Shown here in pieces: positions 22 through 16,071 of a stretch of 64,000 nt of DNA (within the stretch, counting starts at the first letter, position 1; every line of letters begins with the position of its first letter). The position numbers and the translations under genes are program-made. The stretch is from a virus, in IMG/VR virus record IMGVR_UViG_3300020203_000404, positions 1 through 64,000 of that record. One strand, given 5' to 3'. The notes beneath the pieces were generated by a model. It was given only the letters and a program-made list of their open reading frames with translations. It had not been told where the DNA came from and made no database searches.

Positions 22-28
22 TTTTTGC

Positions 29-56: not shown

Positions 57-62
57 TAAAAC

Positions 63-398: not shown

Positions 399-439
399 TT
401 TTTGCTTGACAGACCGCGAGAATGATGTATCATTAAAAC

Positions 440-955: not shown

Positions 956-996
956 TTTTTGTTTGACAGACCGCGAGAATGATGTATCATTAAAAC

Positions 997-1386: not shown

Positions 1387-1427
1387 TTTTTGCTTGACGG
1401 GCCGCGAGAATGATGTATCATTGAAGC

Positions 1428-2159: not shown

Positions 2160-2200
2160 TTTTTGCTTGACAGACCGCGAGAATGATGTATCATTGAAAT

Positions 2201-2629: not shown

Positions 2630-2836
2630 GGGGCGACGGGGCGGCCCACGGGCTCGCCCCTTGCACGCTAAAAAAACGTGCATAGCTTAGGGCTCTGGTC
2701 TTCGCCTAGATCCAAGGGACGCGATCCTGTGCCCCCTCTATTCTTTTTCAAGATTCTACTAGCCTTTCCTTGAAAATGAGGTAATCTAATGGTGTCCACA
2801 GTGGACATCCGAAACAGCAACAGAAAGCACAACATC

Positions 2837-3028
2837 ATGTCGAACAGTACCGAAGTCAAGCGTGGCCGTGGTCGTCCCAAGTCTTTCCCGAATGCCGAGA
2901 CGCGAATGGCGGGTTTCAACCTGCCGGTCGCTACGCTAGAGAAGATCGTCGCGGCGGCTGCCAAGCGTGGCACCAACCAGAACACCCTTCTGGATCGTGC
3001 GGTGAATGCTTACCTCCGCAAGAGCTGA
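2837..3028 (+). CDS. AT-hook plus ribbon-helix-helix DNA-binding protein
   Basis: KRGRGRPK AT-hook, then GFNLPVATLEKIVAAAAKRGTNQNTLLDRAVNAYL matching the CopG/Arc pattern. Confidence 0.7.
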   Translation: MSNSTEVKRGRGRPKSFPNAETRMAGFNLPVATLEKIVAAAAKRGTNQNTLLDRAVNAYLRKS

Positions 3029-3057
3029 GTCGCGGACGGGTCCGTGAGTACTGGAAA

Positions 3058-3092
3058 AGGCTAGGGAGAAATCCCTGGCCTCTTCCTTTTTC
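3058..3092 (+). terminator. probable intrinsic terminator
   Basis: aggctaggga-gaaa-tccctggcct hairpin followed by a pyrimidine/T tract. Confidence 0.55.
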
Positions 3093-3109
3093 TGGGGTAC
3101 TATTCTCAC

Positions 3110-3463
3110 ATGCAAGTCAAAGTCTACTTCAATCTACACAAGCGAACGTGGTCTATTCTGCACAAGACTCCGAAGGGGTGGCGGCTGTGGGGTCACTCGC
3201 CGCGTGTGACGCTGGCAGGCGTGACGTGGAAGGTGAGCGAAGCGGGCCGTCAGCGTGTTCTTCGGGAGCGTCGCAAGAACGTCCACGCCTTCGGCATCGG
3301 TATCCTGCTCGACAATGAGAACGCTCCCGAAGGGGAGTTTCTGCCGGTGAAGTACAATCCCTACGAATCGGGTTTCTTTTGCGTGAACGGTACGCCTGTA
3401 CACGCAAGCCGGTTTGCAGTGTTCACGCCCGAAAGACGTGTTTTTGCTTGCCTAAATCCCTGA
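3110..3463 (+). CDS. conserved phage hypothetical protein
   Basis: VYFNLHK...VSEAGRQRVLRERRKNVHAF motif, recalled as common in phages; TACTAT -10 lies 6 nt upstream. Confidence 0.75.
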   Translation: MQVKVYFNLHKRTWSILHKTPKGWRLWGHSPRVTLAGVTWKVSEAGRQRVLRERRKNVHAFGIGILLDNENAPEGEFLPVKYNPYESGFFCVNGTPVHASRFAVFTPERRVFACLNP

Positions 3464-3481
3464 GGAAGATATACTGAGATA

Positions 3482-3778
3482 ATGAAGTACAGAATCGTCA
3501 AGCACGACAAGCTCAACTGGGCCATTCAAGAGTACCAAGAAGGTGGGGGGGAAATCTCTCGCGGTCCCTACGCCGGTCAGGCGATGCAAGAGAAGTGGAA
3601 GCCCGCCAAGGCGTTCTACCCTTCGCTGCAACGTGCAGCCCTGAACTTGCTCGACATGGCAGCGGGTGATACACTGGAAGCGGGCGAGGCTCAGGGCATC
3701 TTGGATGCCCTCAGGATCGCGGAAACGAGAGTCTTGGAAACGTTACGGGCTATGACACCCGAAGAGGTCGCACGATGA
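3482..3778 (+). CDS. hypothetical protein
   Basis: ORF preceded by TTGCCT-N16-TATACT (3448-3475), leaderless. Confidence 0.75.
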   Translation: MKYRIVKHDKLNWAIQEYQEGGGEISRGPYAGQAMQEKWKPAKAFYPSLQRAALNLLDMAAGDTLEAGEAQGILDALRIAETRVLETLRAMTPEEVAR

Positions 3779-4026
3779 GGTATCGCATCAATTGGACGGA
3801 ATCGGTAGGCTATTCTATCTACGTTCAGGCTGACTCGAAAGAAGAGGCGTTGACGAAGTTCCACGAGGGTGGTTACGAGGCCGACATGTCGCGTGCGTTC
3901 GAGAGTTTCTGCGAAATGCAGGAAGACGCGGAGGCCGAGGAATGCGACGGCTGCAACGGCACCGGCACCACGGGCGGCGGCCCTCCCGGTTCGGCCAGTC
4001 CGTGTGACTGCTGCAACGGTGCGTAA
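3775..4026 (+). CDS. small protein with DnaJ-like CxxCxGxG zinc-finger motifs
   Basis: CDGCNGTG...CDCCNG; ATGA overlap with the upstream gene; paralog at 13468. Confidence 0.7.
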   Translation: MRYRINWTESVGYSIYVQADSKEEALTKFHEGGYEADMSRAFESFCEMQEDAEAEECDGCNGTGTTGGGPPGSASPCDCCNGA

Positions 4027-4156
4027 CATTCTCTTGACTGCGTGCCATTGTCGCTATATGATAATAGCACTATGGCACGCAAGAAGCACGATCTGCCCAA
4101 GGCTGTTCAGGACATAGCCGCAAAACCCGTTTCAAGGACCGCAAGAGGCAACAACA

Positions 4157-4357
4157 ATGAATGAGCGTGTTATCAATTTGCAATTCGACTCTGTCTGCGT
4201 CATCACAACTGAGCAATACGACGCTATCAAGCGTGATCTTGAAATACGTATAATGGTGGACAGTGCTCAGCCGGGGGACCATATCTTGGCACGGCTGTTA
4301 ATCAACGCGGAATATCGCTACCATGAAATCAAGATGCTAGAGAATGTCGTTGACTGA
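4157..4357 (+). CDS. hypothetical protein
   Basis: 66-aa ORF whose stop overlaps the next promoter. Confidence 0.55.
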   Translation: MNERVINLQFDSVCVITTEQYDAIKRDLEIRIMVDSAQPGDHILARLLINAEYRYHEIKMLENVVD

Positions 4358-4378
4358 TAGCATTTTATGCGATAGAAT
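4350..4378 (+). promoter_or_regulatory. promoter TTGACT-N17-TAGAAT; second copy at 4617-4645
   Basis: Near-identical direct repeat ttgactgatagcat(t/g)ttatgcgatagaataaa in front of ATGs at 4384 and 4654. Confidence 0.75.
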
Positions 4379-4383
4379 AAAGC

Positions 4384-4620
4384 ATGAAGAACACAATCGA
4401 AAACCAGTGGCGATGGATGGACAGGCTCAAAGCGGGCACGAAGATCGTCACCAAGGGAGATACTTGGATTCTTCCCAAGTGGAAGAATAATCACCTTGGC
4501 ATCAAGTACGCCGAAAGCGTCTTCATCAACGTCAGCACGGGAGACCTGAAACACTATTCTAGGCTCACAGACTTGGAAAAGCCGCCCCGCATTGAGGGCC
4601 ACAGTTCGGTTTTCATTTGA
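4384..4620 (+). CDS. hypothetical protein
   Basis: Leaderless ORF bracketed by the duplicated promoter. Confidence 0.7.
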   Translation: MKNTIENQWRWMDRLKAGTKIVTKGDTWILPKWKNNHLGIKYAESVFINVSTGDLKHYSRLTDLEKPPRIEGHSSVFI

Positions 4621-4726
4621 CTGATAGCATGTTATGCGATAGAATAAAACATCATGAACACACAAACGACCGAAGTCTACAAGGATTGCTTGGGTTGCAA
4701 GTACTGTAATGATGTATCATCGAAAT

Positions 4727-5206
4727 ATGAGTACCATCACGCACACGAACCCGAACGGCAAGACCGTTCAAGTCAACGTCGGCGAGAACGTGACCATCGG
4801 CGAATACGTGCTCATCTGCGAGAACGCGACCATCGGCTCGCACTCGACCATCGGCTCGCACTCGACCATCGGCAGGAACGCGACCATCGGCTGGAACGCA
4901 ACCATCGGCGAGGACTCGTACATCGGCTCATACTCGATCATCGGCGAGAACGCAACCATCGGCTCGTACTCGTACATCGGCAAGTACGCGATCATCGGCA
5001 AGAACGCGACCATCGGCGAGAACGCGACCATCGGCGAGAACGCGACCATCGGCAAGAACGTGACCATCGGCTCGTACTCGACCGTCGGCAAGAACGCGAT
5101 CATCGGCGAGAACGCGAACATCGGCGAGAACTCGTACATCGTCCGGGACGCGATCGTCGGCCAGGACGCGACCATCGCCCACGGCTCAATCGTCGGCCTA
5201 AAGTGA
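4727..5206 (+). CDS. left-handed beta-helix protein, 159 aa
   Basis: Start placed at MSTITH by homology to the paralogs. Confidence 0.85.
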   Translation: MSTITHTNPNGKTVQVNVGENVTIGEYVLICENATIGSHSTIGSHSTIGRNATIGWNATIGEDSYIGSYSIIGENATIGSYSYIGKYAIIGKNATIGENATIGENATIGKNVTIGSYSTVGKNAIIGENANIGENSYIVRDAIVGQDATIAHGSIVGLK

Positions 5207-5247
5207 TTTTTGCTTGACGAGCCGCGAGAATAATGTATAATTGAAGC

Positions 5248-5853
5248 ATGAAAACCATCACGCACACGAACCCGAACGGCAAGACCGTTCAAGTCAGCGT
5301 CGGCGAGAACGTGACCATCGGCAAGAACGCGAACATCAGCTGGAACGTGACCATCGGCTCGTACTCGACCATCGGCAAGAACGCGAACATCAGCTGGAAC
5401 GTGACCATCGGCTCGCACTCGACCATCGGCGAGCACGCGACCATCGGCAAGAACGCGATCGTCAGCAAGAACTCGTACATCGGCCGGAGTTCGAACATCG
5501 GTGACGGCTCGTACATCGGCAAGGGCTCGAACATCGGCAAGAACGTGACCATCTGCAAGAACGTGACCATCGTCTCGCACTCGACCATCGGCAAGAACGT
5601 GACCATCGGCTCGTACTCGACTATCGGCGAGCACGCGAACATCAGCGAGAACGCGATCATCGACTATGGCGTAACCATCGGCTCGTACGTGACCATCGAC
5701 TTGTACTCGTACATCGGCTCGCACTCGACCATCAGCTGGAACGTGACCATCAGCTGGAACGTGACCATCGGCGAGAACGTGACCATCGGCGAGAACGTGA
5801 CCATCGACCGGGACGCGACCATCGCCCCCGGCTCAATCGTCGGCTCAAAGTGA
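5248..5853 (+). CDS. left-handed beta-helix protein, 201 aa
   Basis: Hexapeptide repeats, own promoter. Confidence 0.9.
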   Translation: MKTITHTNPNGKTVQVSVGENVTIGKNANISWNVTIGSYSTIGKNANISWNVTIGSHSTIGEHATIGKNAIVSKNSYIGRSSNIGDGSYIGKGSNIGKNVTICKNVTIVSHSTIGKNVTIGSYSTIGEHANISENAIIDYGVTIGSYVTIDLYSYIGSHSTISWNVTISWNVTIGENVTIGENVTIDRDATIAPGSIVGSK

Positions 5854-5894
5854 TTTTTGCTTGACAGACCGCGAGAATGATGTATCATTAAAAC

Positions 5895-6338
5895 ATGAAA
5901 ACCATCACGCACACGAACCCGAACGGCAAGACCGTTCAAGTCAGCGTCGGCGAGAACGTGACCATCGGCGAGAACGCGATCATCGGCGAGAACGTGACCA
6001 TCGGCGAGGACTCGTACATCGGCGAGAACGCGATCATCGGCCCGCACTCGACCATCGGCTCGCACTTGACTATCGGCAGGAACGCGACCATCGGCGAATA
6101 CGCGAACATCGTCGATGGTTCGCACGTCGGCTCGTACTCGACCATCGGCGAGAACGTGACCATCTACGAGAACGCGATCATCCGCGAGCACGCGACCATC
6201 GGCAAGAACGCGATCATCCGCGAGCACGCGAGCATCGGCAAGAACGCGACCATCGGCAAGAACTCGTACATCGTCCGGGACGCGATCGTCGGCCAGGACG
6301 CGACCATCGCCCCCGGCTCAATCGTCTGCTCAAAGTGA
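5895..6338 (+). CDS. left-handed beta-helix protein, 147 aa
   Basis: Hexapeptide repeats, own promoter. Confidence 0.9.
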   Translation: MKTITHTNPNGKTVQVSVGENVTIGENAIIGENVTIGEDSYIGENAIIGPHSTIGSHLTIGRNATIGEYANIVDGSHVGSYSTIGENVTIYENAIIREHATIGKNAIIREHASIGKNATIGKNSYIVRDAIVGQDATIAPGSIVCSK

Positions 6339-6379
6339 TTTTTGCTTGACAGACCGCGAGAATAATGTATAATTGAAGC

Positions 6380-6715
6380 ATGAAAACAATCAAATACACG
6401 AACCCGAACGGCAAGACCGTTCTGGTCAGCGTCGGCAAGAACGCGATCATCGGCAAGAACGCGATCATCGGCGAGAACGTGACCATCGGCGAATACGTGC
6501 TCATCTGCGAGAACGTGACCATCGGCTCGAACGCAACCATCGGCTATGGCGTAACCATCTGCGAGAACGCGACCATCGCCGACGGCTCAACCGTCGGCGA
6601 GCACGCGACCATCGGCGAGCACGCGACCATCGGTAAGGACTCGTACATCGGCGAGCACGTGACCATCGGCGTCGGTTCGAACATCGGCGAGGGCTCGACC
6701 ATCGGCTTCGAGTGA
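6380..6715 (+). CDS. left-handed beta-helix protein, 111 aa (ends IGFE)
   Basis: Hexapeptide repeats, own promoter. Confidence 0.9.
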   Translation: MKTIKYTNPNGKTVLVSVGKNAIIGKNAIIGENVTIGEYVLICENVTIGSNATIGYGVTICENATIADGSTVGEHATIGEHATIGKDSYIGEHVTIGVGSNIGEGSTIGFE

Positions 6716-6922
6716 CGCACGAGCTTGCCCTGTAGAGCCACACGCGGGTCTCGCGGTCTGTCAAGCCTTATTCGCAAGCATGGGGTCGATGGGGGGTCGT
6801 TTTAGACGGCCCTCTTTTTCTATTTCAAGCGTACTAGAAACGCATTTAAAATAATTCAGCGGTTCTGTCAAAACACTTACAGTACAAAGCTCGGCGATCT
6901 CTGGGATTTTCTTACACTTACT

Positions 6923-7010
6923 TACTGTCGAGCTAAAAATAACCGTGGCCGCCAGAACGGCAGCCGGAAAGATTTTCCTGCCAGAACGGCAGCCGGAAAG
7001 ATTTTCCTGC
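6923..7010. repeat. ~88-bp non-coding block with an internal 29-bp tandem duplication; second direct copy at 14555-14642
   Basis: gccagaacggcagccggaaagattttcct x2, containing the GGAAAnnTTTTCC palindrome. Confidence 0.9.
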
Positions 7011-7177
7011 TTGCCCCGTGGAGCCCTAGGGCGTTGCGTGCTGCTAGCACGCTCGCCCTAGATAGCTAAGCTAGGCACGTTTTTTTAGCGTGCAAGGGGC
7101 GAGCCCGTAGGCCGCCCCGCAGCCTTGTGCGTTACATGCCGGACGCCGCGACAATCACGACTAGGCCGGTTGCCACA
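7010..7177 (-). repeat. inverted remnant of the intergenic element plus the internally deleted 3' end of gene 9560-9802
   Basis: Reverse complement matches 9722-9870 with a ~36-nt internal deletion. Confidence 0.85.
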
Positions 7178-7290
7178 GCTTTTTCAAGTTACTATTCGCC
7201 CTAGTAAGATAGCACACTATCGTTAGAATGCAAGCTGAAAAAAAAAGATTATTCACCTCGTCTTCCTGTCATTCCGTGGTATCATAGGGC

Positions 7291-7923
7291 ATGAATAACG
7301 CGACAACGTCCAGCCTAATGAGTATCGTAGGGGGGCTTTCCAAGCCCTCCAAGATGCCGGGATTCGGCTACGGGCTTTCGGCTCTCGATTGCAAGGTTGG
7401 CCGCCTACTCCGCAAGGTAGAAGGTTCAACGTGCGGATCGTGCTACGCTTTGAAAGGTAGGTATTCCTTTCCGAATGTGAAAAAAGCACACGCCCGTCGT
7501 CTGGAAAGCCTTTCCAATCCGCATTGGGAGGCTGCCATGACGGAACTTATTTCCCGCAAGGCGAAAAAGGTTCCGTTCTTCCGCTGGCACGATTCTGGCG
7601 ATCTCCAGAGCGTGGAACACCTTTCCATGCTCGTTAGGATCGCGAAAAACCTTCCGCAAGTGTCATTCTGGATTCCAACACGCGAAAACGTGATGGTGAA
7701 ACAATTTCTGAATCAGGGTAACACGTTCCCGGACAATTTTACCGTTCGCGTGTCGGCTCCTATGATCGGTCGCACCCCGGAAAAGATTGCCGGAACGGTT
7801 GGCTCCAGCGTGGAAGATTCTTCCGCTTTTCAATGTCCCTCTCCCAAGCAAGGCAATTCTTGCCAGGAATGTCGTTCCTGCTGGAATGGAAAGGTCGAAA
7901 ACGTTTCCTACTCGAAACACTGA
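7291..7923 (+). CDS. GP88-like Cys-rich phage protein
   Basis: SKPSKMPG, C..CxxCYA.KG.Y, FRWHDSGDL and CxxCRxCW motifs recalled as typical of the gene product 88 family. Confidence 0.7.
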   Translation: MNNATTSSLMSIVGGLSKPSKMPGFGYGLSALDCKVGRLLRKVEGSTCGSCYALKGRYSFPNVKKAHARRLESLSNPHWEAAMTELISRKAKKVPFFRWHDSGDLQSVEHLSMLVRIAKNLPQVSFWIPTRENVMVKQFLNQGNTFPDNFTVRVSAPMIGRTPEKIAGTVGSSVEDSSAFQCPSPKQGNSCQECRSCWNGKVENVSYSKH

Positions 7924-8024
7924 TGAGGAATGTTCTTCCTACCTAATCGGAATCGTGCTATTTTTTCTCGGTGTCGCTCTACTGGGGCTCATCCTGAAAA
8001 ACTTTCGATCGTGAGCTAGCGGGC

Positions 8025-8203
8025 CGATACGCTAGCCTTCTCTGTACGGGCTGGAAACGGCCCGTCCCTGCATGTTAGACGCGAGCCTAAACCCTAAGCT
8101 ACGCGGGCGGGCGGAGAATCCGCCCTAGGCCCGCGTGGGGCCTCACGGGGCAGGCTCGACTTTTTGTTTTTTCCTCTTGCTTTTTCGAGCCTATAGGGTA
8201 TCA
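8025..8203 (+). repeat. modular intergenic element (arm B + bulged GC hairpin core + T-tract + promoter)
   Basis: Core ACGCGGGCGGGCGGAGAATCCGCCCTAGGCCCGCGT at 8101, 8760, 9451, 9872, 11670, 12071, 12612, 13321, 13874. Confidence 0.95.
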
Positions 8204-8264
8204 TATCAATGTCCAAAGCAATTCGCCCAGGACACCTTTCGACACCTCAACAGGACAAGGTATC

Positions 8265-8648
8265 ATGAATATCCCGACCGGTATTGAAGTCTCCCGCACG
8301 GAAGCCGCAACGCTCATTCGCAAGGCTCGTGGCATGGTTTCCGTGGTAGTTCGCAAGCGTTCGGACGGTTCGCTCCGTCGGATGAACGGTTTCGCCGCGT
8401 GCAATCTCAGCGACGCCGAACGGGCAGCAAACACGAACGGCACGGGAGCCGCGTTCGATCCGCTCGCCCATGATCTCATCCCATTCTACGAAATGGTTTC
8501 CCAGACGGTCAACGGTTTCCGCGTCGTGAACGGTAAGACGGTCGCCAGCAAGATCCGCCGCACGATCGGAAAGCAATTCCGGAACGTTGCGATCGAGGGT
8601 ATCCTGTCAATCCGCACGGCTGGAAAAACCTACACGGTCGCGGGCTGA
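8265..8648 (+). CDS. WYL-like / Sm-SH3 beta-barrel phage protein (DUF2693-like)
   Basis: VSVVVRKRSDGSLRRM...IPFYE...FRNV...I pattern. Confidence 0.5.
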   Translation: MNIPTGIEVSRTEAATLIRKARGMVSVVVRKRSDGSLRRMNGFAACNLSDAERAANTNGTGAAFDPLAHDLIPFYEMVSQTVNGFRVVNGKTVASKIRRTIGKQFRNVAIEGILSIRTAGKTYTVAG

Positions 8649-8684
8649 AAAGACTTCCGAGCGGCGACTAGGATTCGCCGCTCG

Positions 8685-8868
8685 GATACGCTAGCCTTCT
8701 CTGTACGGGCCTGAAACGGCCCGTCCCTGCATGCTAGACGCGAGCCTAAACCCTAAGCTACGCGGGCGGGCGGAGAATCCGCCCTAAGCCCGCGTGTGGC
8801 TTCACAAGGCAGGCTCGACTTTTTGTTTTTTCCTCTTGCTTTTTCGCACCGCTAGGGTATCCTAAGAC
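8685..8868 (+). repeat. intergenic element, arm B type, with promoter TTGCTT-N16-TATCCT
   Basis: Near-identical to 8025-8203. Confidence 0.95.
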
Positions 8869-9387
8869 ATGAATACCATCACGCACACGAACCCGAACGG
8901 CAAGACCGTTCTGGTCAGCGTCGGCGAGAACGTGACCGTCTGCAAGAACGTGACCATCGGCTCGTACTCGACCATCGGCTCGTACTCGACCATCGGCGAG
9001 AACGTGACCATCGGCCAGAACGCGATCATCGGCGAGAACGCGACCATCGGCTGGAACGTGACCATCGCCAAGAACCCGTACATCGGCAAGAACGCGAACA
9101 TCGGTGACGGCTCGACCATCGGCAAGAACGTGACCATCTCCAAGAACGTGACCATCGGCTCGTACTCGTACATCGGCAAGAACGCGACCATCGGCGAGAA
9201 CGCGAGCATCGGCAAGAACGCGAGCATCGGCAAGAACGCGACCATCGACCGGGACGCGACCATCGACCGGAACACGACCATCGGCAAGAACGCGAACATC
9301 GGCGAGAACGCGACCATCGACCGGGACACGACCATCGGCGAGAACGCGACCATCGACCGGGACACGACCATCGGCCCAGACGCCTGA
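8869..9387 (+). CDS. left-handed beta-helix protein, 172 aa (single-gene cassette)
   Basis: MNTITH leader and IGPDA end. Confidence 0.9.
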   Translation: MNTITHTNPNGKTVLVSVGENVTVCKNVTIGSYSTIGSYSTIGENVTIGQNAIIGENATIGWNVTIAKNPYIGKNANIGDGSTIGKNVTISKNVTIGSYSYIGKNATIGENASIGKNASIGKNATIDRDATIDRNTTIGKNANIGENATIDRDTTIGENATIDRDTTIGPDA

Positions 9388-9559
9388 GGGGCGACGGGGC
9401 GGCCCACGGGCTCGCCTCTTGCACGCTAAAAAAACGTGCCTAGCTTAGCTACGCGGGCGGGCGGAGAATCCGCCCTAGGTCCGCGTGGGGCTCTACAGGG
9501 CAGGCTCGACTTTTTGCTTTTTCTTCTTGCTTTTTCGAGCCTATAGGGTATCCTAAGAT
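9388..9559 (+). repeat. intergenic element, arm A type. Also at 9812-9981, 11606-11778, 12548-12720, 13257-13370; partial at 2630-2690 and 10531-10562
   Basis: ggggcgg(g)cc(t/c)acgggctcgcc(c/t)cttgcacgctaaaaaaacgtgc(c/a)tagcttagct + core + promoter. Confidence 0.95.
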
Positions 9560-9802
9560 ATGAAAACGAACGATCTCAAAAAGGGTACTCGCGTCCAGCT
9601 TCGCAACGGTTGGCATGCGACGATTGCCGACAACGCACGCGGAAACACGCGGATGGCCACGGTTGAGGGTCACTACACCGAAACGGGCTCAGTCTACTCT
9701 CACGATATCGTGCGGGCTCAGGTGGCAACCGGCCTAGTCACGATTGAGCACACCCCCGCTCAGGTGAAGCTCCGCAAGAATGTCGCGGCGTCCGGCGTGT
9801 AA
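9560..9802 (+). CDS. hypothetical phage protein
   Basis: Leaderless ORF exactly filling the space between two elements. Confidence 0.8.
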   Translation: MKTNDLKKGTRVQLRNGWHATIADNARGNTRMATVEGHYTETGSVYSHDIVRAQVATGLVTIEHTPAQVKLRKNVAASGV

Positions 9803-9981
9803 CGTACAAGACTACGGGGCGGGCCTACGGGCTCGCCTCTTGCACGCTAAAAAAACGTGCATAGCTTAGCTACGCGGGCGGGCGGAGAATCCGCCCTAGG
9901 TCCGCGTGGGGCTCCACGGGGCGAGCCTAGTTTTTTGTTTTTTCCTCTTGCTTTTTCGAGCCTATAGAGTATCATTCTGGC

Positions 9982-10518
9982 ATGAAAGCAATTCGCCAAA
10001 CGGCCCTTGTGGCCAAACTGAACGATATCAAGGGGGCGACGTTCGCGACCCTCATCACGGAAACGAATGCCCGTCTCAAGAAGACCGGCAATACTTTCGG
10101 GGACGTTCGCAAGGTATCGCGTGTCAACGTTACGCTAGGCTTCCAATACGAAGCAGCCGTCAACCGTCAACGCACGCGGGAAGGCTCGGAAGCTAACTTT
10201 GAAGCGGCTCCGCGTCAATGGGGCGAACGTATCGCCGGAACATTCCTCGTGCAGCACAAGGACCGGACATACCTTGAGTGCAAGGTGGAGCGTAGTATTT
10301 CGCACGTCTATCTCGATTCGACCGGGAAGGAATTGACCGACGAACAAGTCGCCCCTTTCCTTCCGGCAAAGAGTTCCAGCCGTCAGGATACCGAGAAGGA
10401 AATTCTCGTTCGCGACTACGCTCTCGATTCCATCCGTGGAATCTCTTTCAAGGGCGACAGTTTCCTCATCATGCAGGATAATCCTTCGCCGATCGCGGCT
10501 GAATTGCTGGCGGTCTAA
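9982..10518 (+). CDS. hypothetical phage protein
   Basis: Leaderless ORF after TTGCTT-N16-TATCAT (9948-9975). Confidence 0.8.
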   Translation: MKAIRQTALVAKLNDIKGATFATLITETNARLKKTGNTFGDVRKVSRVNVTLGFQYEAAVNRQRTREGSEANFEAAPRQWGERIAGTFLVQHKDRTYLECKVERSISHVYLDSTGKELTDEQVAPFLPAKSSSRQDTEKEILVRDYALDSIRGISFKGDSFLIMQDNPSPIAAELLAV

Positions 10519-10722
10519 TCGCTCACGAGGCTACGGGGCGGGCTCACGGGCTCGCCCCTTGCGTTCTCGTTCGCACGATAATGCGTTCATAGTACGCTTG
10601 AAATAGAAAAAGGCTTGACGAGCCGAGAGCGTATTAGAGCCTAAGGATATTCTCGCGAAATTCCCATTGCCTTTATCCGTCAACGTGGTACTATTCCAGC
10701 GTCCAAACGAAAGGGGCATACC

Positions 10723-11349
10723 ATGCGATTCAAATTCACCGCGAAAAAAGATTATGAAACGGGCGAAATCGGTTGGCAGGATTCGCGTATCCGCTCCCAC
10801 GTATACGGCCCGCTATCCGGTTCGATCGGTCTCGCCCACGATTGTCTTGAACACGCTGCGTTTGATAGCGTCGCGGATGAGATTGAAGCCCATGGGGCCA
10901 TGTACTGGATACGTTACGAAGGCGGATACAATATCGACATGGAAAGCTTTTCCAATGAGTGGACCAGCCTCGTGCAAGGTCTCGCAGAGGAGCCTTTTTT
11001 TCCTACTCCGCCGAAAACTCGCCCCCTGGAAGATTCGATCGAGGAAGATATTTCCACGATCATCGCAAACGGACGTGCCTTGTGCCTACGGGAGTTCCAT
11101 GAGGATTATGAGCGGACCGAGATTGAAAAGGTGGCAAACGTATTCCGGGCCTATTTCCGTCGCGGATACCGTAAGGCTACACGACGCTACAAGGGTCTAG
11201 CGGCGTGCAAGGTTGCGGGCTTATTCTCGGCCTTGGTGAGAGCCTTCGAAGGTCAACGAATCGAGTACAGGGGGCAGGAAATCACGGTCACGGTAAACTT
11301 GAAAACGCAACGGGTTACGGTAGAGGAAAACATTCCGGCAGAATGGTAG
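10723..11349 (+). CDS. hypothetical protein (HDxxEH..DExxAxG; possible metal site)
   Basis: 208-aa ORF with SD-like AGGGG upstream. Confidence 0.7.
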   Translation: MRFKFTAKKDYETGEIGWQDSRIRSHVYGPLSGSIGLAHDCLEHAAFDSVADEIEAHGAMYWIRYEGGYNIDMESFSNEWTSLVQGLAEEPFFPTPPKTRPLEDSIEEDISTIIANGRALCLREFHEDYERTEIEKVANVFRAYFRRGYRKATRRYKGLAACKVAGLFSALVRAFEGQRIEYRGQEITVTVNLKTQRVTVEENIPAEW

Positions 11350-11392
11350 AATATTCTCCTTGCTTTTTCGAGCCTATAGGGTATCCTAAGGC

Positions 11393-11605
11393 ATGGAAAC
11401 GCAATTCAGTGACGACATGAACACGATCCGTGCGGACGACATGGACACGATCCGTGCGGACGAGATGGAAGAATATTCGTTCATCGCAAGCGAGGAACGT
11501 CGATACAAGGAAGAAAAGGCCGAATTCCACGGCGAGCTCGAAAGCCCGGAAGATATTGCCGAGTACGAGTCATGGCTGGATGGCAATGCTCTGGAATCGG
11601 TCTAG
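11393..11605 (+). CDS. very acidic small protein with an internal 8-aa tandem repeat
   Basis: About 23 D/E against 6 K/R in 70 aa; DDMNTIRA-DDMDTIRA; own promoter at 11360. Confidence 0.75.
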   Translation: METQFSDDMNTIRADDMDTIRADEMEEYSFIASEERRYKEEKAEFHGELESPEDIAEYESWLDGNALESV

Positions 11606-11778
11606 GGGGTGACGGGGCGGGCCTACGGGCTCGCCCCTTGCACGCTAAAAAAACGTGCCTAGCTTAGCTACGCGGGCGGGCGAAGAATCCGCCCTAGGCA
11701 CGCGTGGGGCTCCACGGGGCAAGCTCGACTTTTTTGCTTTTCCTCTTGCTTTTTCGAGCCTATAGGGTATCCTAAGAC

Positions 11779-12006
11779 ATGGAAACGATGAATCTTCAAA
11801 GGAACGACTACAATCTCGCCGGTCTGATCGCCTCGGACTACCATTTGTTCGGCGAGCGGAACCGCTATATTCTCGCTGCGGTTCACACGCGGTTCGAAGA
11901 GGTTACTTGGATGGTATTCGACGCTGAACAAGCGGATGAGATTCTGGGGACGCCCAAGATCATCCGCCAAGATCGCACGCCGGAACTGGCAGTGAAGGGC
12001 CTCTAG
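11779..12006 (+). CDS. hypothetical protein
   Basis: Leaderless cassette ORF. Confidence 0.75.
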   Translation: METMNLQRNDYNLAGLIASDYHLFGERNRYILAAVHTRFEEVTWMVFDAEQADEILGTPKIIRQDRTPELAVKGL

Positions 12007-12007
12007 T

Positions 12008-12175
12008 AGGCTGCCCAAGGGCCGGAAACGGCCCTTCTGGGCCTTCCTTTTTTTTGTGCCTAGCTTAGCTACGCGGGCGGGCGGAGAATCCGCCCTAGGC
12101 CCGCGTGGGGCTCTACAAGGCAAGCCTAGTTTTTGCTTTTTTCTCTTGCTTTGTTTGTAGCAAGGGGTATCCTAA
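12008..12175 (+). repeat. intergenic element, arm C type (terminator-like); second copy at 13811-13982
   Basis: ggctgcccaagggccggaaacggcccttctgggccttcc-T8, then the core. Confidence 0.9.
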
Positions 12176-12190
12176 ACAACAAGGAGACTT

Positions 12191-12547
12191 ATGTATTTCA
12201 AGGAAATCGTAGGACATGTATTGTTAGAAATCTCGTTGAATGACAGAGAAATTATCCTCAAGACCGACAAGGCAACGGCTCGTCTTGAGGCGGTTGGTGA
12301 CTGCTGTTCGCAAGGCTGGATTGACGACCTTGCCGTTTCGGGCACGCTGCCATCCAAGATTGTCGGTATTGAGGACATGTGCCAGTCTTTCAACCTTGCC
12401 GATGACGATAAGAGGTTTGACGAAGGTGACATTGTTGTGGCATACGGTGCCAAGATCGTGACCGAAAATGGTCCGATCACCTTCAATGTCTGGAACAATA
12501 GCAATGGCTATTATGGTTCTGTGTTGTGTTTCTCGGCATCGTACTGA
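12191..12547 (+). CDS. conserved phage hypothetical protein (DCCS...SNGYY motif)
   Basis: AAGGAG SD; motif recalled from phage proteins. Confidence 0.75.
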   Translation: MYFKEIVGHVLLEISLNDREIILKTDKATARLEAVGDCCSQGWIDDLAVSGTLPSKIVGIEDMCQSFNLADDDKRFDEGDIVVAYGAKIVTENGPITFNVWNNSNGYYGSVLCFSASY

Positions 12548-12720
12548 GGGGCGACGGGGCGGGCCTGCGGGCTCGCCTCTAGCACGCTAAAAAAACGTGC
12601 CTAGCTTAGCTACGCGGGCGGGCGGAGAATCCGCCCTAGGCACGCGTGGGGCTCTACAGGGCAGGCTCGACTTTTTGTTTTTTCCTCTTGCTTTTTCGCA
12701 CCGCTAGGGTATCCTAAGAC

Positions 12721-12876
12721 ATGAATACCATCACGCACACGAACCCGAACGGCAAGACCGTTCTGGTCAGCGTCGGCGAGAACGTGACCATCGGCTCGTA
12801 CTCGACCATCGGCGAGAACGTGACCATCGGCAAGAACGTGACCATCACCCCCGGCTCAATCGTCGGCTCAAAGTGA
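12721..12876 (+). CDS. minimal left-handed beta-helix protein, 51 aa (not in the ORF track)
   Basis: Hand translation: MNTITHTNPNGKTVLVSVGENVTIGSYSTIGENVTIGKNVTITPGSIVGSK*. Confidence 0.85.
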   Translation: MNTITHTNPNGKTVLVSVGENVTIGSYSTIGENVTIGKNVTITPGSIVGSK

Positions 12877-12917
12877 TTTTTGCTTGACAGACCGCGAGAA
12901 TGATGTATCATTGAAAT

Positions 12918-13256
12918 ATGAGTACCATCACACATGTGAACCCGGACGGAAAGACCGTTCTGGTCAACGTCGGCTCGAACGTAACCATCGGCTATGGCGT
13001 AACCATCTGCGAGAACGCGATCATCGGCTGGAACGTGACCATCGGCGAATACGCGAACATCGGCGAGAACTCGTACATCGGCTGGAACGCGACCATCGGC
13101 GAGAACGTGACCATCGGCTCGTGCTCGACTATCGGCTCGTACTCGACCATCGGCCAGAACGCGATCATCGGCGAGAACTCGTACATCGGCTGGAACGCGA
13201 CCATCGGCGAGAACGTGACCATCGACCGGGACACGACCATCGGCCCAGACGCTTGA
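12918..13256 (+). CDS. left-handed beta-helix protein, 112 aa (ends IGPDA)
   Basis: Hexapeptide repeats, own promoter. Confidence 0.9.
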   Translation: MSTITHVNPDGKTVLVNVGSNVTIGYGVTICENAIIGWNVTIGEYANIGENSYIGWNATIGENVTIGSCSTIGSYSTIGQNAIIGENSYIGWNATIGENVTIDRDTTIGPDA

Positions 13257-13428
13257 GGGGCGACGGGGCGGGCCTGCGGGCTCGCCTCTAGCACGCTAAA
13301 AAAACGTGCCTAGCTTAGCTACGCGGGCGGGCGGAGAATCCGCCCTAGGCCCGCGTGGGGCCTCACAGGCGATTGTAACGCTAGTGTAAAACGGTTTGAC
13401 TCTAGGCTTTTTCGTGGTATACTCAATC

Positions 13429-13809
13429 ATGGAAAAGACGATCGAAGACACCCGAAGAGGTAGCACGATGAGGTATCGCATCAATTGGACGGAATCGGTA
13501 GGCTATTGTGCCTACGTTCAGGCTGACTCGAAAGAAGAGGCGTTGACGAAGTTCCACGAGGGTGGTTACGATGCCTCGCTCGATGGTTTCTGCGAAATGC
13601 ATGACGACGCGGAGGCCGAGGAAGATCCTGATAAGGAATGCGACGGCTGCAACGGCACCGGCACCACTGGCGGCGGCCCTCCCGGTTCGGCCCTCCTGGT
13701 GGAAAACGACAAGCCTGCCGAATGAGCGGACATGCGTCACGAATGCGAAACGTGGCTTGGAAGAATATTCGACATCGAGCTTTGCGACCTATTCGAGCGT
13801 AGCCCATAG
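13429..13809 (+). pseudogene. chimeric gene: paralog of 3775-4026 fused to the 3' half of a 15254-15508 paralog, with TGA at 13723-13725
   Basis: NDKPAE*ADMRHECETWLG aligns to HDKPAEWVDMRHECETWLG; promoter TTGACT-N16-TATACT at 13396. Confidence 0.7.
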
Positions 13810-13982
13810 CGGGCTGCCCAAGGGCCGGAAACGGCCCTTCTGGGCCTTCCTTTTTTTTGTGCCTAGCTTAGCTACGCGGGCGGGCGGAGAATCCGCCCTA
13901 GGCCCGCGTGGGGCTCCACGGGGCAAGCTCGACTTTTTTGCTTTTCCTCTTGCTTTTTCTTTTTCAAGCTATATAGTAAAGC

Positions 13983-14408
13983 ATGAAATCACTACTCGAA
14001 AAAGCCATCCGCGTAGCATGCGAATCGCATGCGGGCCAAGTGGATAAGGGTGGGTTACCCTATATCCTACATCCACTTGCGGTTATGTTGAGTCTTCCAT
14101 CGTCGGACGTGAAAGGTCGCATCGTCGCCGTACTCCATGATGTTGTGGAGGACACAAGTACTACACTTGAAAAGCTCGCTGAGTGGCTGCCCTTCGATCT
14201 TCTTGAAGGCGTCGATGCCATGTCAAAGCGTCAAGGCGAGACTAACCGTGCCTATTGGATTCGCTGTAAGGCCAACGAAATCGCGGCACGGGTCAAGGTC
14301 GCTGACATGCTACATAATTCGAGCCCCGAGAGGCTAGCCTGTCTGAGCTACGCGGAGCAAGAATATCTTTCCAAGAAATATGGAGAGGCTCTTGTCTTTT
14401 TCAAGTAG
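13983..14408 (+). CDS. HD-domain protein, RelA/SpoT (p)ppGpp hydrolase-like small alarmone hydrolase
   Basis: HAGQVDKGGLPYILHP, AVLHDVVEDT and VKVADMLHN motifs. Confidence 0.85.
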   Translation: MKSLLEKAIRVACESHAGQVDKGGLPYILHPLAVMLSLPSSDVKGRIVAVLHDVVEDTSTTLEKLAEWLPFDLLEGVDAMSKRQGETNRAYWIRCKANEIAARVKVADMLHNSSPERLACLSYAEQEYLSKKYGEALVFFK

Positions 14409-14554
14409 TAAAACTGAACATGGGGGGCGGGCTACGCTCGCCCGAAAACGTTGCCCCTGCTATCTAACAACCTAAATGCGTGAGCCTAAAAGACCTACGC
14501 AAAAGCATGAAATAGCGTTCGCGTGAAATTGCTGGGAGTCTAGCCTAAAACACA

Positions 14555-14642
14555 TACTGTGAGCTAAAATAACCGTGGCCGCCAAAACGGCAGCCGGAAA
14601 AATTTTCCCTGCCAAAACGGCAGCCGGAAAGATTTTCCCGCC
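14555..14642. repeat. second copy of the 6923-7010 block
   Basis: Direct sequence match with a 30-bp tandem duplication. Confidence 0.9.
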
Positions 14643-14977
14643 GTGTAAGATCTATGTAAAATCCGAGTTTTTACACAATCGTTACGAAACGATTTCCGTT
14701 TCGAACCCGTAACGGTATATCTTTCCGTGTTGGAAAAGTATACTCGTTTGGCTATCCTTTCCAGTATACCCTACCCTTGGCCGATATCAATGTGAAAGCC
14801 TTTCCTATTGTATGGCAATTGTAAGGCTCGCGGATTGTGCCAACCGATCGACCAATAGTAGGGTACTATCGTATATCATGGAATCGAGGGCACTAGAGAC
14901 TGAAATAGCCTTGGTGGAATACCTTGGAACGGAAACGTATCTGGCGACGATTATCTTCCTATCCTCAGACGTTGCTG

Positions 14978-15045
14978 GAAAAGTCTCAAGTAGTTACCTT
15001 TTCAAGCCGACACTACCCTATCGCAATAGTGCGACACTTCGGAGA
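14978..15045 (+). promoter_or_regulatory. ~65-bp repeated leader with sigma28-like boxes; second copy at 15518-15585
   Basis: TCAA(G/C)-N15-GCCGA(C/T)AC; each copy is followed by an SD-like sequence and ATG. Confidence 0.5.
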
Positions 15046-15055
15046 ACGTCACAAC

Positions 15056-15250
15056 ATGAAAAGTATCAAAGGCTCAGTCTCGCTTGCCTTGGAGCGTCTT
15101 CGGGTGATACTCGCAAATGATCCCGATAGGAAGGCTCGGCTGGAAGTCATGGCCGACAATATCCGTCGGAAGGCTATCGAGAATCCGCGTCGCATCGTGT
15201 CGGGTGATTCGCTGGAAAGCCTCCTCAATCTTGGCAAGGAAAAGGCGTAG
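15056..15250 (+). CDS. hypothetical protein
   Basis: ATG 15056 with GGAG upstream, directly after the repeated leader. Confidence 0.65.
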   Translation: MKSIKGSVSLALERLRVILANDPDRKARLEVMADNIRRKAIENPRRIVSGDSLESLLNLGKEKA

Positions 15251-15253
15251 AAC

Positions 15254-15508
15254 ATGCAAACGATGATAGTCTGGAACGGCCTGCAAGTTAGAGCCGAAGT
15301 CGAAGTGGAAAAAGTTTCCTACTGGTTCGAGGCGGTGACGTGCCTGACCGACACGGCGTACGAAGTTGACGATGCGGAAGAATTTTCCGCCTTTCTCGTG
15401 CAGCATGACAAGCCTGCTGAATGGGTCGATATGCGTCACGAATGCGAAACGTGGCTAGGAACGTTCGAGGGCCAGCTATTCGAGCTACTCAAGCGTAGCC
15501 TATGGTAA
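15254..15508 (+). CDS. hypothetical acidic protein
   Basis: ORF with a homologous fragment at 13690-13809. Confidence 0.7.
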   Translation: MQTMIVWNGLQVRAEVEVEKVSYWFEAVTCLTDTAYEVDDAEEFSAFLVQHDKPAEWVDMRHECETWLGTFEGQLFELLKRSLW

Positions 15509-15594
15509 GAAAAGTCTGAAAAGTCTCAACTAGTTACCTTTTCAAGCCGATACTACCCTATCGCAATCATGCGACACTTCAGAGGGACCGAATC

Positions 15595-15684
15595 ATGACA
15601 CGCCAGTTTCGCACACTTTCCGTCATTCTTCTACTCGCAATCCCGGCCTACATGGTTGCGATTCTTATCGCTCGCTTCGCGTAA
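15595..15684 (+). CDS. 29-aa single-pass membrane peptide (not in the ORF track)
   Basis: MTRQFRTLSVILLLAIPAYMVAILIARFA*, after GAGGG and the repeated leader. Confidence 0.55.
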   Translation: MTRQFRTLSVILLLAIPAYMVAILIARFA

Positions 15685-15691
15685 CTCTACC

Positions 15692-15913
15692 ATGAAAGTT
15701 TTTCCCAACATGTTTCTAACCGACGATGGCACGATGGACACCGTATTCGAATGCGGTGCGTGTCATGCGACGCTACGCTATCACGGTGAAGCCTTCGAAC
15801 GTGCCGACGATGGCACGCTCGTGAATCGGGACGACGTTATCGCGAGCGTCGCGAATGAGCACGATTGTGCAGATTGCATCGACACCGAATATTATTCCAA
15901 GTGGGAAGAATAA
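15692..15913 (+). CDS. small acidic Zn-ribbon-like protein
   Basis: CGAC...HDCADC. Confidence 0.6.
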   Translation: MKVFPNMFLTDDGTMDTVFECGACHATLRYHGEAFERADDGTLVNRDDVIASVANEHDCADCIDTEYYSKWEE

Positions 15914-16071
15914 TCTTCTCACACTGAAGAGTTTTCCACTCCCAGCCCATATGGCAGTCGATGCCATAATGGCGGGGAGGGGGTTTTTTCACGGTGGAAA
16001 ACTTTTCCGTTACCCGGTGAGGCGGCGGGGGGCTTTTCCACAGGGCGACGCACTTTTCAGAAGCTATCTCC

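Follow-up and report, generated by a model that had tools for sequence, protein, structure and literature searches.

The locus raises the question of how about a dozen small accessory genes of a phage are each kept as a separate unit bounded by one and the same intergenic module, and what this module does. It lies in a stretch of 64,000 nt, here called the window, which belongs to a 151,810-bp record of an uncultured phage (96% complete). The sequence-only reading had described a modular hairpin element between single genes, and this element turned out to be real. The 17-mer of its core occurs nine times on the plus strand between 8109 and 13898, and counting both strands gave 17 matches, versus 0.08 in shuffles. 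A covariance-model search of the record found the same nine copies (77-99 bits), a minus-strand variant at 7008-7077 (32 bits), and no other match. The element is thus represented by nine plus-strand copies at 8025-13982 and one inverted variant at 7004-7124, and there are no further copies elsewhere in the 152-kb record. A record-wide search for the core outside its composite context yielded zero occurrences, and the element had no match in Rfam.

Each copy fills the gap from a stop codon to the next start codon, which is 172-187 nt long in the compact copies. The order of parts is a 3′ RNA hairpin arm of one of three types, a palindrome, a two-tier hairpin of 36 nt, a T-tract, and a sigma-70-like promoter. 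The anatomy proposed earlier, with arms A, B, or C, one of two sequences before the core, the core hairpin, the T-tract, and the promoter, was correct. The arms have UNCG or GNRA tetraloops, and the loops of arm A are cTACGg (n=2), cCACGg (n=1), or cTGCGg (n=2), with a TCAC variant at 10535. TAGCTTAGCT stands before the core in seven copies and is replaced by CTAAGCT in both B-type copies. The core, termed core-1, is ACGCGGGC-GGGCGGA-GAA-TCCGCCC-TAG-GCCCGCGT. The two-tier hairpin has 10 + 7 bp, a triloop, and three unpaired nucleotides, reaches up to about 21 bp if flanking pairs are included, and was predicted by single-sequence folding and independently by RNAalifold on the alignment. The T-tract of 15-20 nt abuts the upstream side of the -35 box in all window copies but one (E8). 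The centre of about 56 nt, comprising the palindrome and the two-tier hairpin, is almost identical in all copies, in contrast to the diverse flanks and to the neighbouring proteins, which are only 59-96% identical.

The nine copies, E1 to E9, differ in detail. E1 (8025-8209) has arm B, the right half of the palindrome (CTAAGCT), core-1 at 8101-8136, a T-tract, and a promoter at 8177-8204; the leaderless ATG at 8210 opens an ORF of only 25 aa, and the gene of 127 aa begins at 8265. Arm B is also found in E2 (8649-8868), which has core-1 at 8760-8795 with a TAA bulge, a promoter at 8836-8863, and the ATG at 8869. E3 (9388-9559) consists of arm A with a CACG loop, the palindrome at 9440-9450, core-1 with a G.U variant at 9451-9486, and a promoter at 9527-9554 ahead of the ATG at 9560. 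E4 (9803-9981) combines arm A with a TACG loop and core-1 at 9872-9907, and the ATG follows at 9982. Arm A recurs in E5 (11606-11778; core-1 at 11670-11705 with two uncompensated changes, ATG at 11779), in E7 (12548-12720; TGCG loop, core-1 at 12612-12647, ATG at 12721 of a truncated hexapeptide gene), and in E8 (13257-13467; core-1 at 13321-13356). The promoter part of E8, TTGACT-N16-TATACT at 13396-13423, differs from that of the other copies and is found in other contigs ahead of genes of three different families. Arm C is present in E6 (12007-12190), in which core-1 (12071-12106) and the promoter are followed by a Shine-Dalgarno leader and the ATG at 12191, and in E9 (13797-13982), with core-1 at 13874-13909 and the ATG of an HD-domain gene at 13983.

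Four additional sites had not been listed before. A plus-strand junction at 10519-10722 retains only the arm A hairpin (10535-10556), followed by an unrelated promoter and leader, and another at 11350-11392 contains only the promoter (TTGCTT-N16-TATCCT, ATG at 11393). The inverted variant at 7004-7124 on the minus strand contains arm A, the palindrome, and a different hairpin, core-2 (7026-7063), and is linked to a truncated duplicate of the 3′-terminal part of an 80-aa gene. In a core-less plus-strand copy at 2637-2700, arm A and the left half of the palindrome are fused directly to GGCTC.

The block of cassette genes extends from 8265 to 14408 on the plus strand, and most of its members have no known function. 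It comprises genes at 8265-8648, 8869-9387 (hexapeptide), 9560-9802, 9982-10518, 10723-11349, 11393-11605, 11779-12006, 12191-12547 (DUF7448), 12721-12876 and 12918-13256 (hexapeptide), 13468-13725, and 13983-14408 (HD_4). Upstream of the array lies a Gp88-family gene (7291-7923, plus strand) that is conserved in all lineages. Homologues of the L5 early-region gene families gp82 and Gp88 are included in the array.

The promoter of the window copies, TTGCTT-N16-TATCCT, follows the T-tract. By sequence match, a sigma-70-like promoter was recognisable in 70 of 82 copies, in the forms TTGCTT-N16-TATCCT, TATACT, or TATCAT. Among these 70, TTGCTT served as the -35 box in 47, the spacer was 16 nt long in 55, and the ATG was located 5 nt past the -10 box in 50. 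With a promoter ending 5 nt before the ATG, the mRNAs are probably leaderless. The repeated promoter matches the E. coli consensus at only 7 of 12 positions, and a simple promoter scan missed it. The promoters and the ATG spacing agree with the former suggestion that the elements give each gene its own expression unit.

The termination signals were not uniform. A G+C-rich hairpin with a T-run within a few nucleotides, as in intrinsic terminators, was found in arm C (12019-12056 and 13822-13859) and in the small hairpins of E1 and E4 (9909-9928 in E4). By sequence, arm C of E6, with its GAAA-loop hairpin and T8, is a canonical intrinsic terminator. Neither arm A nor the core hairpin has this form. 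The first hairpin of the arm A copies is followed by an A-run instead of a T-run, and the core hairpin is not a textbook terminator stem because the strong hairpin sits about 25 nt ahead of the T-tract. In three relatives (G005, L036, and L037) an A-rich tract follows the hairpins where the window copies have the T-tract, and termination cannot work there as in the window.

We propose that the modules act as composite transcription punctuation between consecutive small genes. To judge from the sequence, the left part would give the upstream message a series of 3′-terminal RNA hairpins, in the order arm, two-tier hairpin, and small hairpin with T-run, which would stop or weaken transcription and protect the message at its 3′ end. 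The T-tract would have a second role as an upstream promoter element, and the sigma-70-type promoter would start the next, leaderless message at or beside the ATG. As the module would terminate the previous message and start the next one, each accessory gene would be a self-sufficient unit read by the host RNA polymerase.

The relatives show that these units have been reshuffled. About 25 metagenome contigs contain the same element with different genes in different orders, so that the alternative of an identical gene order between the elements does not apply. The 55 gene-family junctions are of 30 types, and eight gene families have at least two different partners on each side. The record G002, with a TerL 90% identical to that of the window's phage, has only Gp88, one gene, and one element in common with it across the region. 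A contig that is 98.7% identical over 4.6 kb (L072) differs by the replacement of one unit, whose left breakpoint falls at most a few nucleotides from the ATG after E7. The window itself contains a truncated duplicate, the inverted remnant, and the core-less copy. The earlier view of interchangeable parts was confirmed by the free combination of arm, core, linker, and promoter types. An arm mostly stays with the gene upstream of it and a promoter part mostly with the gene that follows, the pairing of arms and promoters is free, and in some families (F5, F12, and F14) the arm or the promoter has changed. In the element part downstream of the core hairpin, many adjacent site pairs violated the four-gamete condition.

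The genome comparison supports the view that the near-identical centre of about 56 nt would serve as portable homology for general homologous recombination, which could duplicate, delete, invert, and swap units within and between co-infecting genomes. The exchange would be performed by a RecA-like protein of the phage and/or by that of the host. A RecA-family gene is present in the record (E = 2e-43), which fits homologous exchange. Of the earlier suggestion that the elements provide homology or sites for the shuffling of genes, the first part is in agreement with the different genes in the relatives and with recombination along the element, whereas sites for a dedicated recombinase are not supported. 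On the basis of these sequence features, we regard it as likely that the elements are terminator-promoter cassettes similar to the PeSLs of T4-type phages (see below) that double as portable homology, and that no dedicated site-specific recombinase is involved.

Two properties of the centre are left unaccounted for by plain punctuation and homology: its near-invariance beside the much more variable proteins, and the occurrence of the palindrome throughout the clade at a modal distance from the -10 box. The palindrome, GTRGCTWAGCYAC, is 13 bp long (11-13 bp across copies). Six phage lineages have retained it, with a TerL that shares only 60-90% identity with that of the window's phage. It is restricted to one block of 6-14 kb, with 14 copies in G005, three in G004, and one in G002; two further records have 11-12 copies each. 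The purine and pyrimidine at its variable positions are independent (A..C 22, A..T 10, G..C 9, G..T 7; Fisher p = 0.52), and since the commonest combination is unable to pair on the plus strand, the palindrome is not an RNA stem. Although the sequence between the two cannot be aligned, 18 copies in five lineages keep the palindrome centre at 102-103 bp from the -10 box; further distance classes are 91-94 and 112-115 bp. These properties would be expected if the palindrome and the adjoining lineage-specific segment were a dock for a dimeric DNA-binding regulator of the phage or the host. Such a regulator would switch the accessory promoters jointly or block read-through in the manner of stoperators, and the constancy of the centre would reflect recognition. 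An A-run or T-run in either orientation 5-7 nt upstream of the palindrome is also more in keeping with a duplex feature than with a U-tract. However, distances of 97, 99, 101, 104, and 105 bp are present as well in the close set. In addition, the site is about 115 bp upstream of the start, a long way for RNA polymerase to be contacted directly, the left half-site is absent from the B-type copies, and several promoters of G002 and the window occur without the palindrome module. No small DNA-binding regulator was recognisable with Pfam in the record, which encodes only two ECF-like sigma factors. An operator array is a rather unlikely explanation, and it would be compatible with punctuation and homology as an added layer.

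The hairpin next to the palindrome might, alternatively, be a specific RNA signal in the transcript. It could be processed by RNase III, as happens between the early genes of T7, with a hairpin left to protect the 3′ end, or it could be bound by an RNA-binding or antitermination factor of the phage. Core-1 and core-2 have unrelated sequences, yet they share geometry and total length, occupy the same slot, and combine with all arm and promoter types. In core-2, 98% of the cells are paired, a G-C pair is exchanged for A-U via a G.U intermediate, and four pairs vary by wobble only. In core-1, 97% of the cells are paired; a single pair shows compensation, and in six others only one side varies. 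All six remain standard pairs, five of them through G.U wobble. The G.U wobbles in arms and cores are viable on the plus strand only, and the tetraloops of the arms matter in RNA, not in DNA. The stems, which would have spoken against selection on structure had they shown no covariation, thus contain both compensatory and wobble changes. Nevertheless, the covariation is modest, as 22 of 500 and 37 of 500 shuffles reached the observed score for the two core types, and core-1 often has uncompensated mismatches (A.C, G.A). The geometry is compatible with an RNase III site of the T7 early type, where cleavage would be expected within the internal loop of a hairpin of about 20 bp, but the phage record contains no RNase III gene. 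Furthermore, only weak folds were found in this slot in distant lineages, and efficient termination at arm C would leave the hairpin seldom transcribed. We therefore consider a specific RNA signal unlikely.

It is conceivable, if rather improbable, that the centre is more than homology and that one unrecognised factor reads both the palindrome and the two-tier hairpin in their fixed slot about 103 bp from the -10 box, controls the accessory promoters or read-through, and also makes the site a recombination hot spot. If this were true, a phage clade would have a gene-capture platform that carries promoters and needs no integrase.

A dedicated recombinase that cuts and rejoins the bulged hairpin as single-stranded DNA would make the array an integron-like capture platform. 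Such a mechanism would fit the hairpin with unpaired bases on one side and the cassette unit of promoter, gene, and arm, which is mostly bounded in the core, and one paper reports attC-like sites in phage genomes (PMC9892861). Like integron cassettes, the units contain single genes, have an imperfect, partly unpaired hairpin between them, and occur in different orders in relatives. However, the absence of a recombinase, noted before for the window, extends to the whole record: Phage_integrase (PF00589) had no match in the 152 kb, while the controls were positive, and Resolvase, Y1_Tnp (PF01797), and ParB_N had none in the 96%-complete record, which thus lacks a match to tyrosine, serine, or HUH enzymes. 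The cassettes bring their own promoters, whereas those of integrons are promoterless under a common Pc. The exchange at variant sites is spread downstream of the core instead of occurring at one crossover point, F5, F12, and F14 show a swapped arm or promoter, and the core was seen only in its composite context. The attC core sites R''/L''...L'/R' (RYYYAAC ... GTTRRRY) were found in none of the aligned elements, and the remaining parts of the element are plain transcription signals. The former analogy to attC or REP sites recognised by recombinases was therefore abandoned, for REP also because the Y1 HUH transposase of REP/RAYT systems was not found, and site-specific recombination is very unlikely. 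Even less credible is a selfish MITE- or REP-like miniature element, formed by palindrome and hairpin, that spread recently into terminator-promoter gaps so that copy identity would reflect youth and not function: the near-identical centre between diverse flanks and its absence from some junctions would fit, but it always has the same slot, orientation, and promoter distance, occupies the slot also in lineages with a TerL identity of 60-70%, and has no terminal repeats, target duplications, transposase, or copies elsewhere in the 152 kb.

Several known systems resemble the element in part. The early genes of T7 have RNase III hairpins between cistrons, where upstream promoters are shared and processing is required. 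The T7 hairpins likewise span about two helical turns, have stems broken by unpaired bases, and are located downstream of each early gene, where their cleavage leaves a stabilising 3′ hairpin. In the array, cleavage is only putative, each gene appears to have its own promoter, and a phage RNase III is missing from the record. The stoperators of Cluster A mycobacteriophages (PMC9283540) are asymmetric, transcription-oriented, genome-wide sites bound by the monomeric immunity repressor of a temperate phage. Both systems have a 13-bp site in many short gaps of the early region that is conserved as sequence and not as structure. In contrast to stoperators, the site described here is palindromic and confined to one block, and neither a repressor nor an integrase was found.

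The closest resemblance is to the promoter-early stem-loops (PeSLs) of T4-type phages (Arbiol et al. 2010, PMC2839356; Comeau et al. 2014, PMC4122927), and the previously drawn analogy holds. PeSLs are repeated intergenic stem-loops with an A/T-rich tract and a sigma-70-like promoter, extending from stop codon to start codon. They cluster in a hyperplastic block whose small genes have no known function, indels of relatives map to the repeats, and homologous recombination is thought to move the genes, each with its own promoter and terminator. Their stable stem-loop sits inside the promoter region or overlaps it and serves as a terminator or attenuator, and mini-circles arise when neighbouring repeats exchange. 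The array shares a sigma-70-like promoter in the repeat (by sequence match), an A/T-rich tract upstream of the -35 box, and a hyperplastic region with orphan genes and indels at the repeats. On the other hand, the stable hairpins, whose role as terminators is putative, are 45-110 nt upstream of the -35 box, outside all five PeSL positions, with the stem-loop itself at about 45-80 nt and thus not beside the promoter, the element is about twice as long, and most units are apparently leaderless, whereas PeSL units carry a Shine-Dalgarno motif. The near-invariant centre of 56 nt, with its 13-bp palindrome and its 36-nt two-tier hairpin in two structural alleles, goes beyond PeSLs, as do the two hairpins of equal geometry in one slot and the clade-wide occurrence of the palindrome. 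The clade is also not T4-type: no T4-like core genes were seen, ECF-like sigma factors are present, the terminase, portal, and head proteins had weak PHROG matches only, and blastn gave no match to GenBank phages. Judged by its sequence, the element would function as PeSLs do, without belonging to that group by descent.

The 17-mer at the core of the element occurred nine times on the + strand of the window (8109-13898), compared with 0.08 matches in shuffled windows. The full 36-nt hairpin was present in nine copies in the whole record, all of them inside the array block (8025-13982). A covariance model of the element, built from 33 distinct copies, recovered the same nine copies (77-99 bits) as well as a variant on the minus strand (7008-7077; 32 bits, E = 4e-6), and it found no further copy in the 152 kb of the record. 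Rfam searches with the element, using both gathering and E-value thresholds, yielded nothing except a chance match to arm C, and the exact core 19-mer had no match in IMG/VR in a search from which the window's own record and near records were possibly left out.

The anatomy described in the sequence-only reading, i.e., three arm types, TAGCTTAGCT versus CTAAGCT, a two-tier hairpin with a TAG bulge, a T-tract, a promoter, and tetraloop variants of arm A, was seen in full in the window copies. Compact copies span the entire gap of 172-187 nt from stop codon to start codon. Arm A starts on the stop codon itself (TGA/TAG-GGGCGAC). Its first hairpin has 10 bp, including one or two G.U pairs, and the loop UACG, UGCG, or CACG; the second has 5 bp and an A7 loop. 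In arm B, a hairpin with a GAAA loop is joined by a flank able to pair with the sequence just 5' of the T-tract, and arm C, a hairpin with a GAAA loop followed by T8, is a predicted intrinsic terminator of textbook form. The palindrome TAGCT-T-AGCTA sits between the arm and the two-tier hairpin, which has a lower stem of 10 bp, a bulge of 3 nt, an upper stem of 7 bp, and a triloop, and which was predicted unguided by RNAalifold (-22 kcal/mol). In most copies, the core is followed by a small hairpin of 4-6 bp with a YACRG-type loop sequence and then by the T-tract; this hairpin is not a universal part, as it is missing from the TTATAG and TTGTAG variants.

The last part of the element is the promoter TTGCTT-N16-TATCCT, which was recognisable in 70 of the 82 copies from the window and the related contigs. 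The spacer was 16 nt long in 55 of these promoters, and in 50 the first ATG followed 5 nt past the -10 motif, so that the transcript would begin with the A of the ATG or right beside it. The promoter, the terminator, and the leaderless starts are predictions from sequence, and they support the proposal that each gene is provided with its own expression unit. After the elements E1 and E8, the leaderless ATGs open ORFs of only 25 aa (8210-8287) and 22 aa (13430-13498), respectively. The former starts with MSKAIRPG and in this resembles the gene at 9982, whose product starts with MKAIRQ. It seems that first codons travel with the promoters and that the real genes begin further down, behind Shine-Dalgarno-like sequences.

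The elements had also been proposed to enable the shuffling of genes. Metagenome contigs were scanned with 19 nt of the palindrome and core; about 25 of the 30 contigs obtained were real arrays, with up to 12 element copies. The + strand ORFs between the elements were clustered into gene families, and the same families were found in differing orders and neighbourhoods. What comes after the 80-aa gene differs: an element and the 178-aa gene in the window and in contigs L072 and L075, an element and a third family in L049 and L056, and, directly adjoining, two other genes in L075 and L078. The 75-aa gene and the DUF7448 gene are each preceded by two different families. The 55 scored junctions represented 30 distinct types, and eight families had at least two different partners on each side. 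The complete relative G002, with a terminase identity of 90%, has only the Gp88-family gene upstream of the array (7291-7923, + strand), a 127-aa gene, and one element in common with the array region. Over 4.6 kb, contig L072 shares 98.7% identity with the window, yet the 277 nt after element E7 are swapped for 471 nt of unrelated sequence; on the left side, the break falls a few nucleotides past the ATG. Relatives thus carry different genes between the same elements, rather than an identical order and content, and both the reshuffled families and the unit replacement in L072 support the proposed shuffling.

The likening of the elements to recombinase sites was not supported. The record contained no match to Phage_integrase, Resolvase, Y1_Tnp, or ParB_N, while the positive controls worked, and the pattern of exchange is unlike that of one fixed cleavage site. 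The arm type mostly stays with the upstream family (15/15 for the hexapeptide genes; 6/6, 3/3, and 3/3 for others), the promoter parts tend to go with the downstream one, and arms and promoters are freely combined. Across the core, the columns of the element become less linked to the upstream family (z falls from about 9 to about 3-5). The association scan with the neighbouring families showed this drop clearly but did not reveal a sharp switch. Therefore, the usual moving unit is the promoter part plus gene plus arm, with most crossovers in the centre. Exceptions are the 80-aa gene, which occurs with arm A or arm C, and the 75-aa gene, which occurs with two promoter parts, one of which precedes three different families. 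Downstream of the core, all four haplotypes were found at many adjacent pairs of variable sites, and in the window the core variants GTCC/GCAC and the small-hairpin variants CTACAG/CCACGG occur in all four combinations. Homologous recombination together with short-tract conversion between dispersed repeats would yield such a pattern, while a single fixed cleavage site would not. The same exchange mechanism has been proposed for the PeSLs, the promoter-early stem-loop cassettes of T4-type phages (PMC2839356).

Several remnants and other repeats lie near or within the array. At 2637-2700, arm A and the left half-palindrome are joined straight to GGCTC; this copy looks like an element that lost its core hairpin by a precise deletion between short TAG repeats. 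An inverted cassette remnant on the minus strand (7004-7240) points away from the Gp88 gene. Its promoter (TTGCAT-N16-TATCTT) is accompanied by a truncated copy of the 80-aa gene's 3' end, which matches 9722-9822, and by arm A, the palindrome, and the second core hairpin, core-2. The array is flanked by paired intergenic repeat units of about 30 nt with CCGGAAAGATTTTCC (6936-7007 and 14566-14638), and a second flanking family is a 67-nt intergenic repeat with 93% identity (14978-15044 and 15518-15584). In addition, the 3' end of gene 13468-13725 and the following sequence (13686-13807) are repeated with 73-82% identity at the 3' end of gene 15254-15508 (15385-15503), a homologue of which lies directly after the single element of G002.

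Core-2 occupies the same slot as core-1 in the inverted copy of the window and in many contigs, and it is found with each of the three arm types and with several promoter parts. It is unrelated to core-1 in sequence but matches it in geometry (8 + 7 bp, a triloop, and three unpaired nucleotides), and both hairpins leave the same length between the palindrome and the segment that follows. Among the core-2 variants, 98% of the cells pair; one pair changes from G-C via G.U to A-U, and four pairs vary by wobble only. In the core-1 variants, a set that includes G002 and two more distant contigs, 97% of the cells pair; there is a single compensated pair (G-C to U-A), and in six others only one side varies, via wobble in five of them. 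Every wobble pair is viable on the + strand only. This strand bias and the UNCG and GNRA loops in the arms suggest that the selected form is RNA or single-stranded DNA of the + strand. The suggested selection on RNA structure is thus backed by compensatory and wobble changes in both cores, with modest covariation statistics (the observed scores were reached by 22/500 and 37/500 shuffles) and with many variants in core-1 that are uncompensated (A.C and G.A). Folding of the slot is only weak in distant lineages, and therefore the strong two-tier hairpin is a feature of the window's lineage. The phage record contains no RNase III gene.

The centre of the element was found to be unusually constant. 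In 67 close copies, 3 of 40 columns were polymorphic in the centre versus 32 of 34 in the next stretch, part of this constancy being ascertainment because a 19-nt stretch of the 5' half had served to pick the contigs. Neither the bulge nor the 3' strand of the lower stem was used in any selection, and both were equally constant. Between the same contigs, proteins encoded beside identical centres were 59-61% (178-aa family), 84-88%, and 89-96% identical, and Gp88 proteins with identities of 73% and 55% still adjoin a core-1 with two or three changes. Neither a need for any stable hairpin nor a need for some homology requires such constancy.

A palindrome with a set distance to the promoter is found throughout the clade. 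Relatives were identified via the terminase (99, 90, 84, 71, 71, 70, and 60% identity), and several have arrays of the same layout. In these, a hairpin precedes an A- or T-run and the palindrome GTRGCTWAGCYAC; G+C-rich inverted repeats and an A/T-rich tract come next, and then a promoter with the ATG a few nucleotides past its -10 motif. The palindrome is present in 14 copies in G005, all within 14 kb, in three in G004, and in one in G002, and a pattern scan revealed two more IMG/VR phages with 11-12 copies each; G003 lacks it. At one junction of G002 (L025, 5905-6014), a different perfect 12-bp palindrome (CGCTCTAGAGCG) lies in the slot that holds the clade palindrome at other junctions. The R and Y positions of the palindrome vary independently (A..C 22, A..T 10, G..C 9, G..T 7; Fisher p = 0.52), and the commonest pair, A..C, cannot form on the + strand. 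The palindrome therefore is not an RNA hairpin and is kept as a duplex sequence.

The distance from the palindrome centre to the -10 motif was 102-103 bp in 18 copies from five lineages, between which the intervening sequence is unalignable; other classes were 91-94 and 112-115 bp. In the close set, 49 of 70 copies were at 102-103 bp, and distances of 97-105 bp also occurred. The classes near 92, 103, and 114 bp are suggestive of helical phasing of palindrome and promoter, but the distances of 97-105 bp beside them do not uphold a strict phasing. The constancy of the centre, the clade palindrome, and the set promoter distance together suggest that something reads the centre, for which the record holds no Pfam-recognisable candidate besides sigma factors. 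Several specific readings of the palindrome were rejected: a ParB/KorB-like site, as the record lacks a ParB_N match; an NtcA site, as the palindrome is GTA-N7-TAC and not GTA-N8-TAC; and an ECF-sigma promoter, as no AAC...CGT pattern is kept across lineages. The search for a Cro-like protein yielded nothing beyond a weak HTH_3 match, which lay within a sigma factor, and a Phage_antitermQ match was the region-4 helix-turn-helix of the second sigma factor.

The source record has a length of 151,810 bp and an estimated completeness of 96%. No GenBank phage matched it by blastn, and its large terminase, portal, and major head protein had weak PHROG matches. It encodes a RecA-family protein (E = 2e-43; 68149-68916 of the record), two ECF-like sigma factors (at about 77.9-78.6 kb and 116.27-116.79 kb), an HNH endonuclease, PhoH, MazG, ThyX, peptide deformylase, and ClpP, an auxiliary gene set that would be typical of cyanophages. 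The G+C content is 54-59% in bases 1-14,000, in the accessory-gene block (1-16000), versus 44-48% beyond 18 kb in the structural part. The cassette gene at 13983-14408 encodes a small HD-domain phosphohydrolase (HD_4; PHROG 990, E = 3e-41), which may be an alarmone hydrolase, and a 56%-identical copy is held by the array of G005. The possibility that the array marks the first-injected genome end was dropped. In G002, the direct terminal repeat measures just 127 bp and is probably the overlap of a circular assembly; the map is effectively circular, and its positions therefore do not reveal which end of the DNA is injected first.

Phages keep their functions for host takeover and counter-defence in hyperplastic blocks of small genes, and the gain and loss of such genes is only partly understood. 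In a phage clade that is not related to T4, independent metagenome contigs have the same non-coding module around genes that have been reshuffled, and therefore PeSL-type shuffling is not peculiar to T4. In addition, an intergenic sequence of 40-56 nt in two structural versions is more constant than the adjoining proteins, beside a clade-conserved palindrome at a set distance to the promoter. A possible coupling of regulation to gene exchange could be judged once the reader of the centre or the palindrome is identified. By analogy, the element would work like the PeSLs, the closest known system, but it is not a member of them by descent, and it differs from the cassettes of T4-type phages in size, in layout, and in its constant structured centre.
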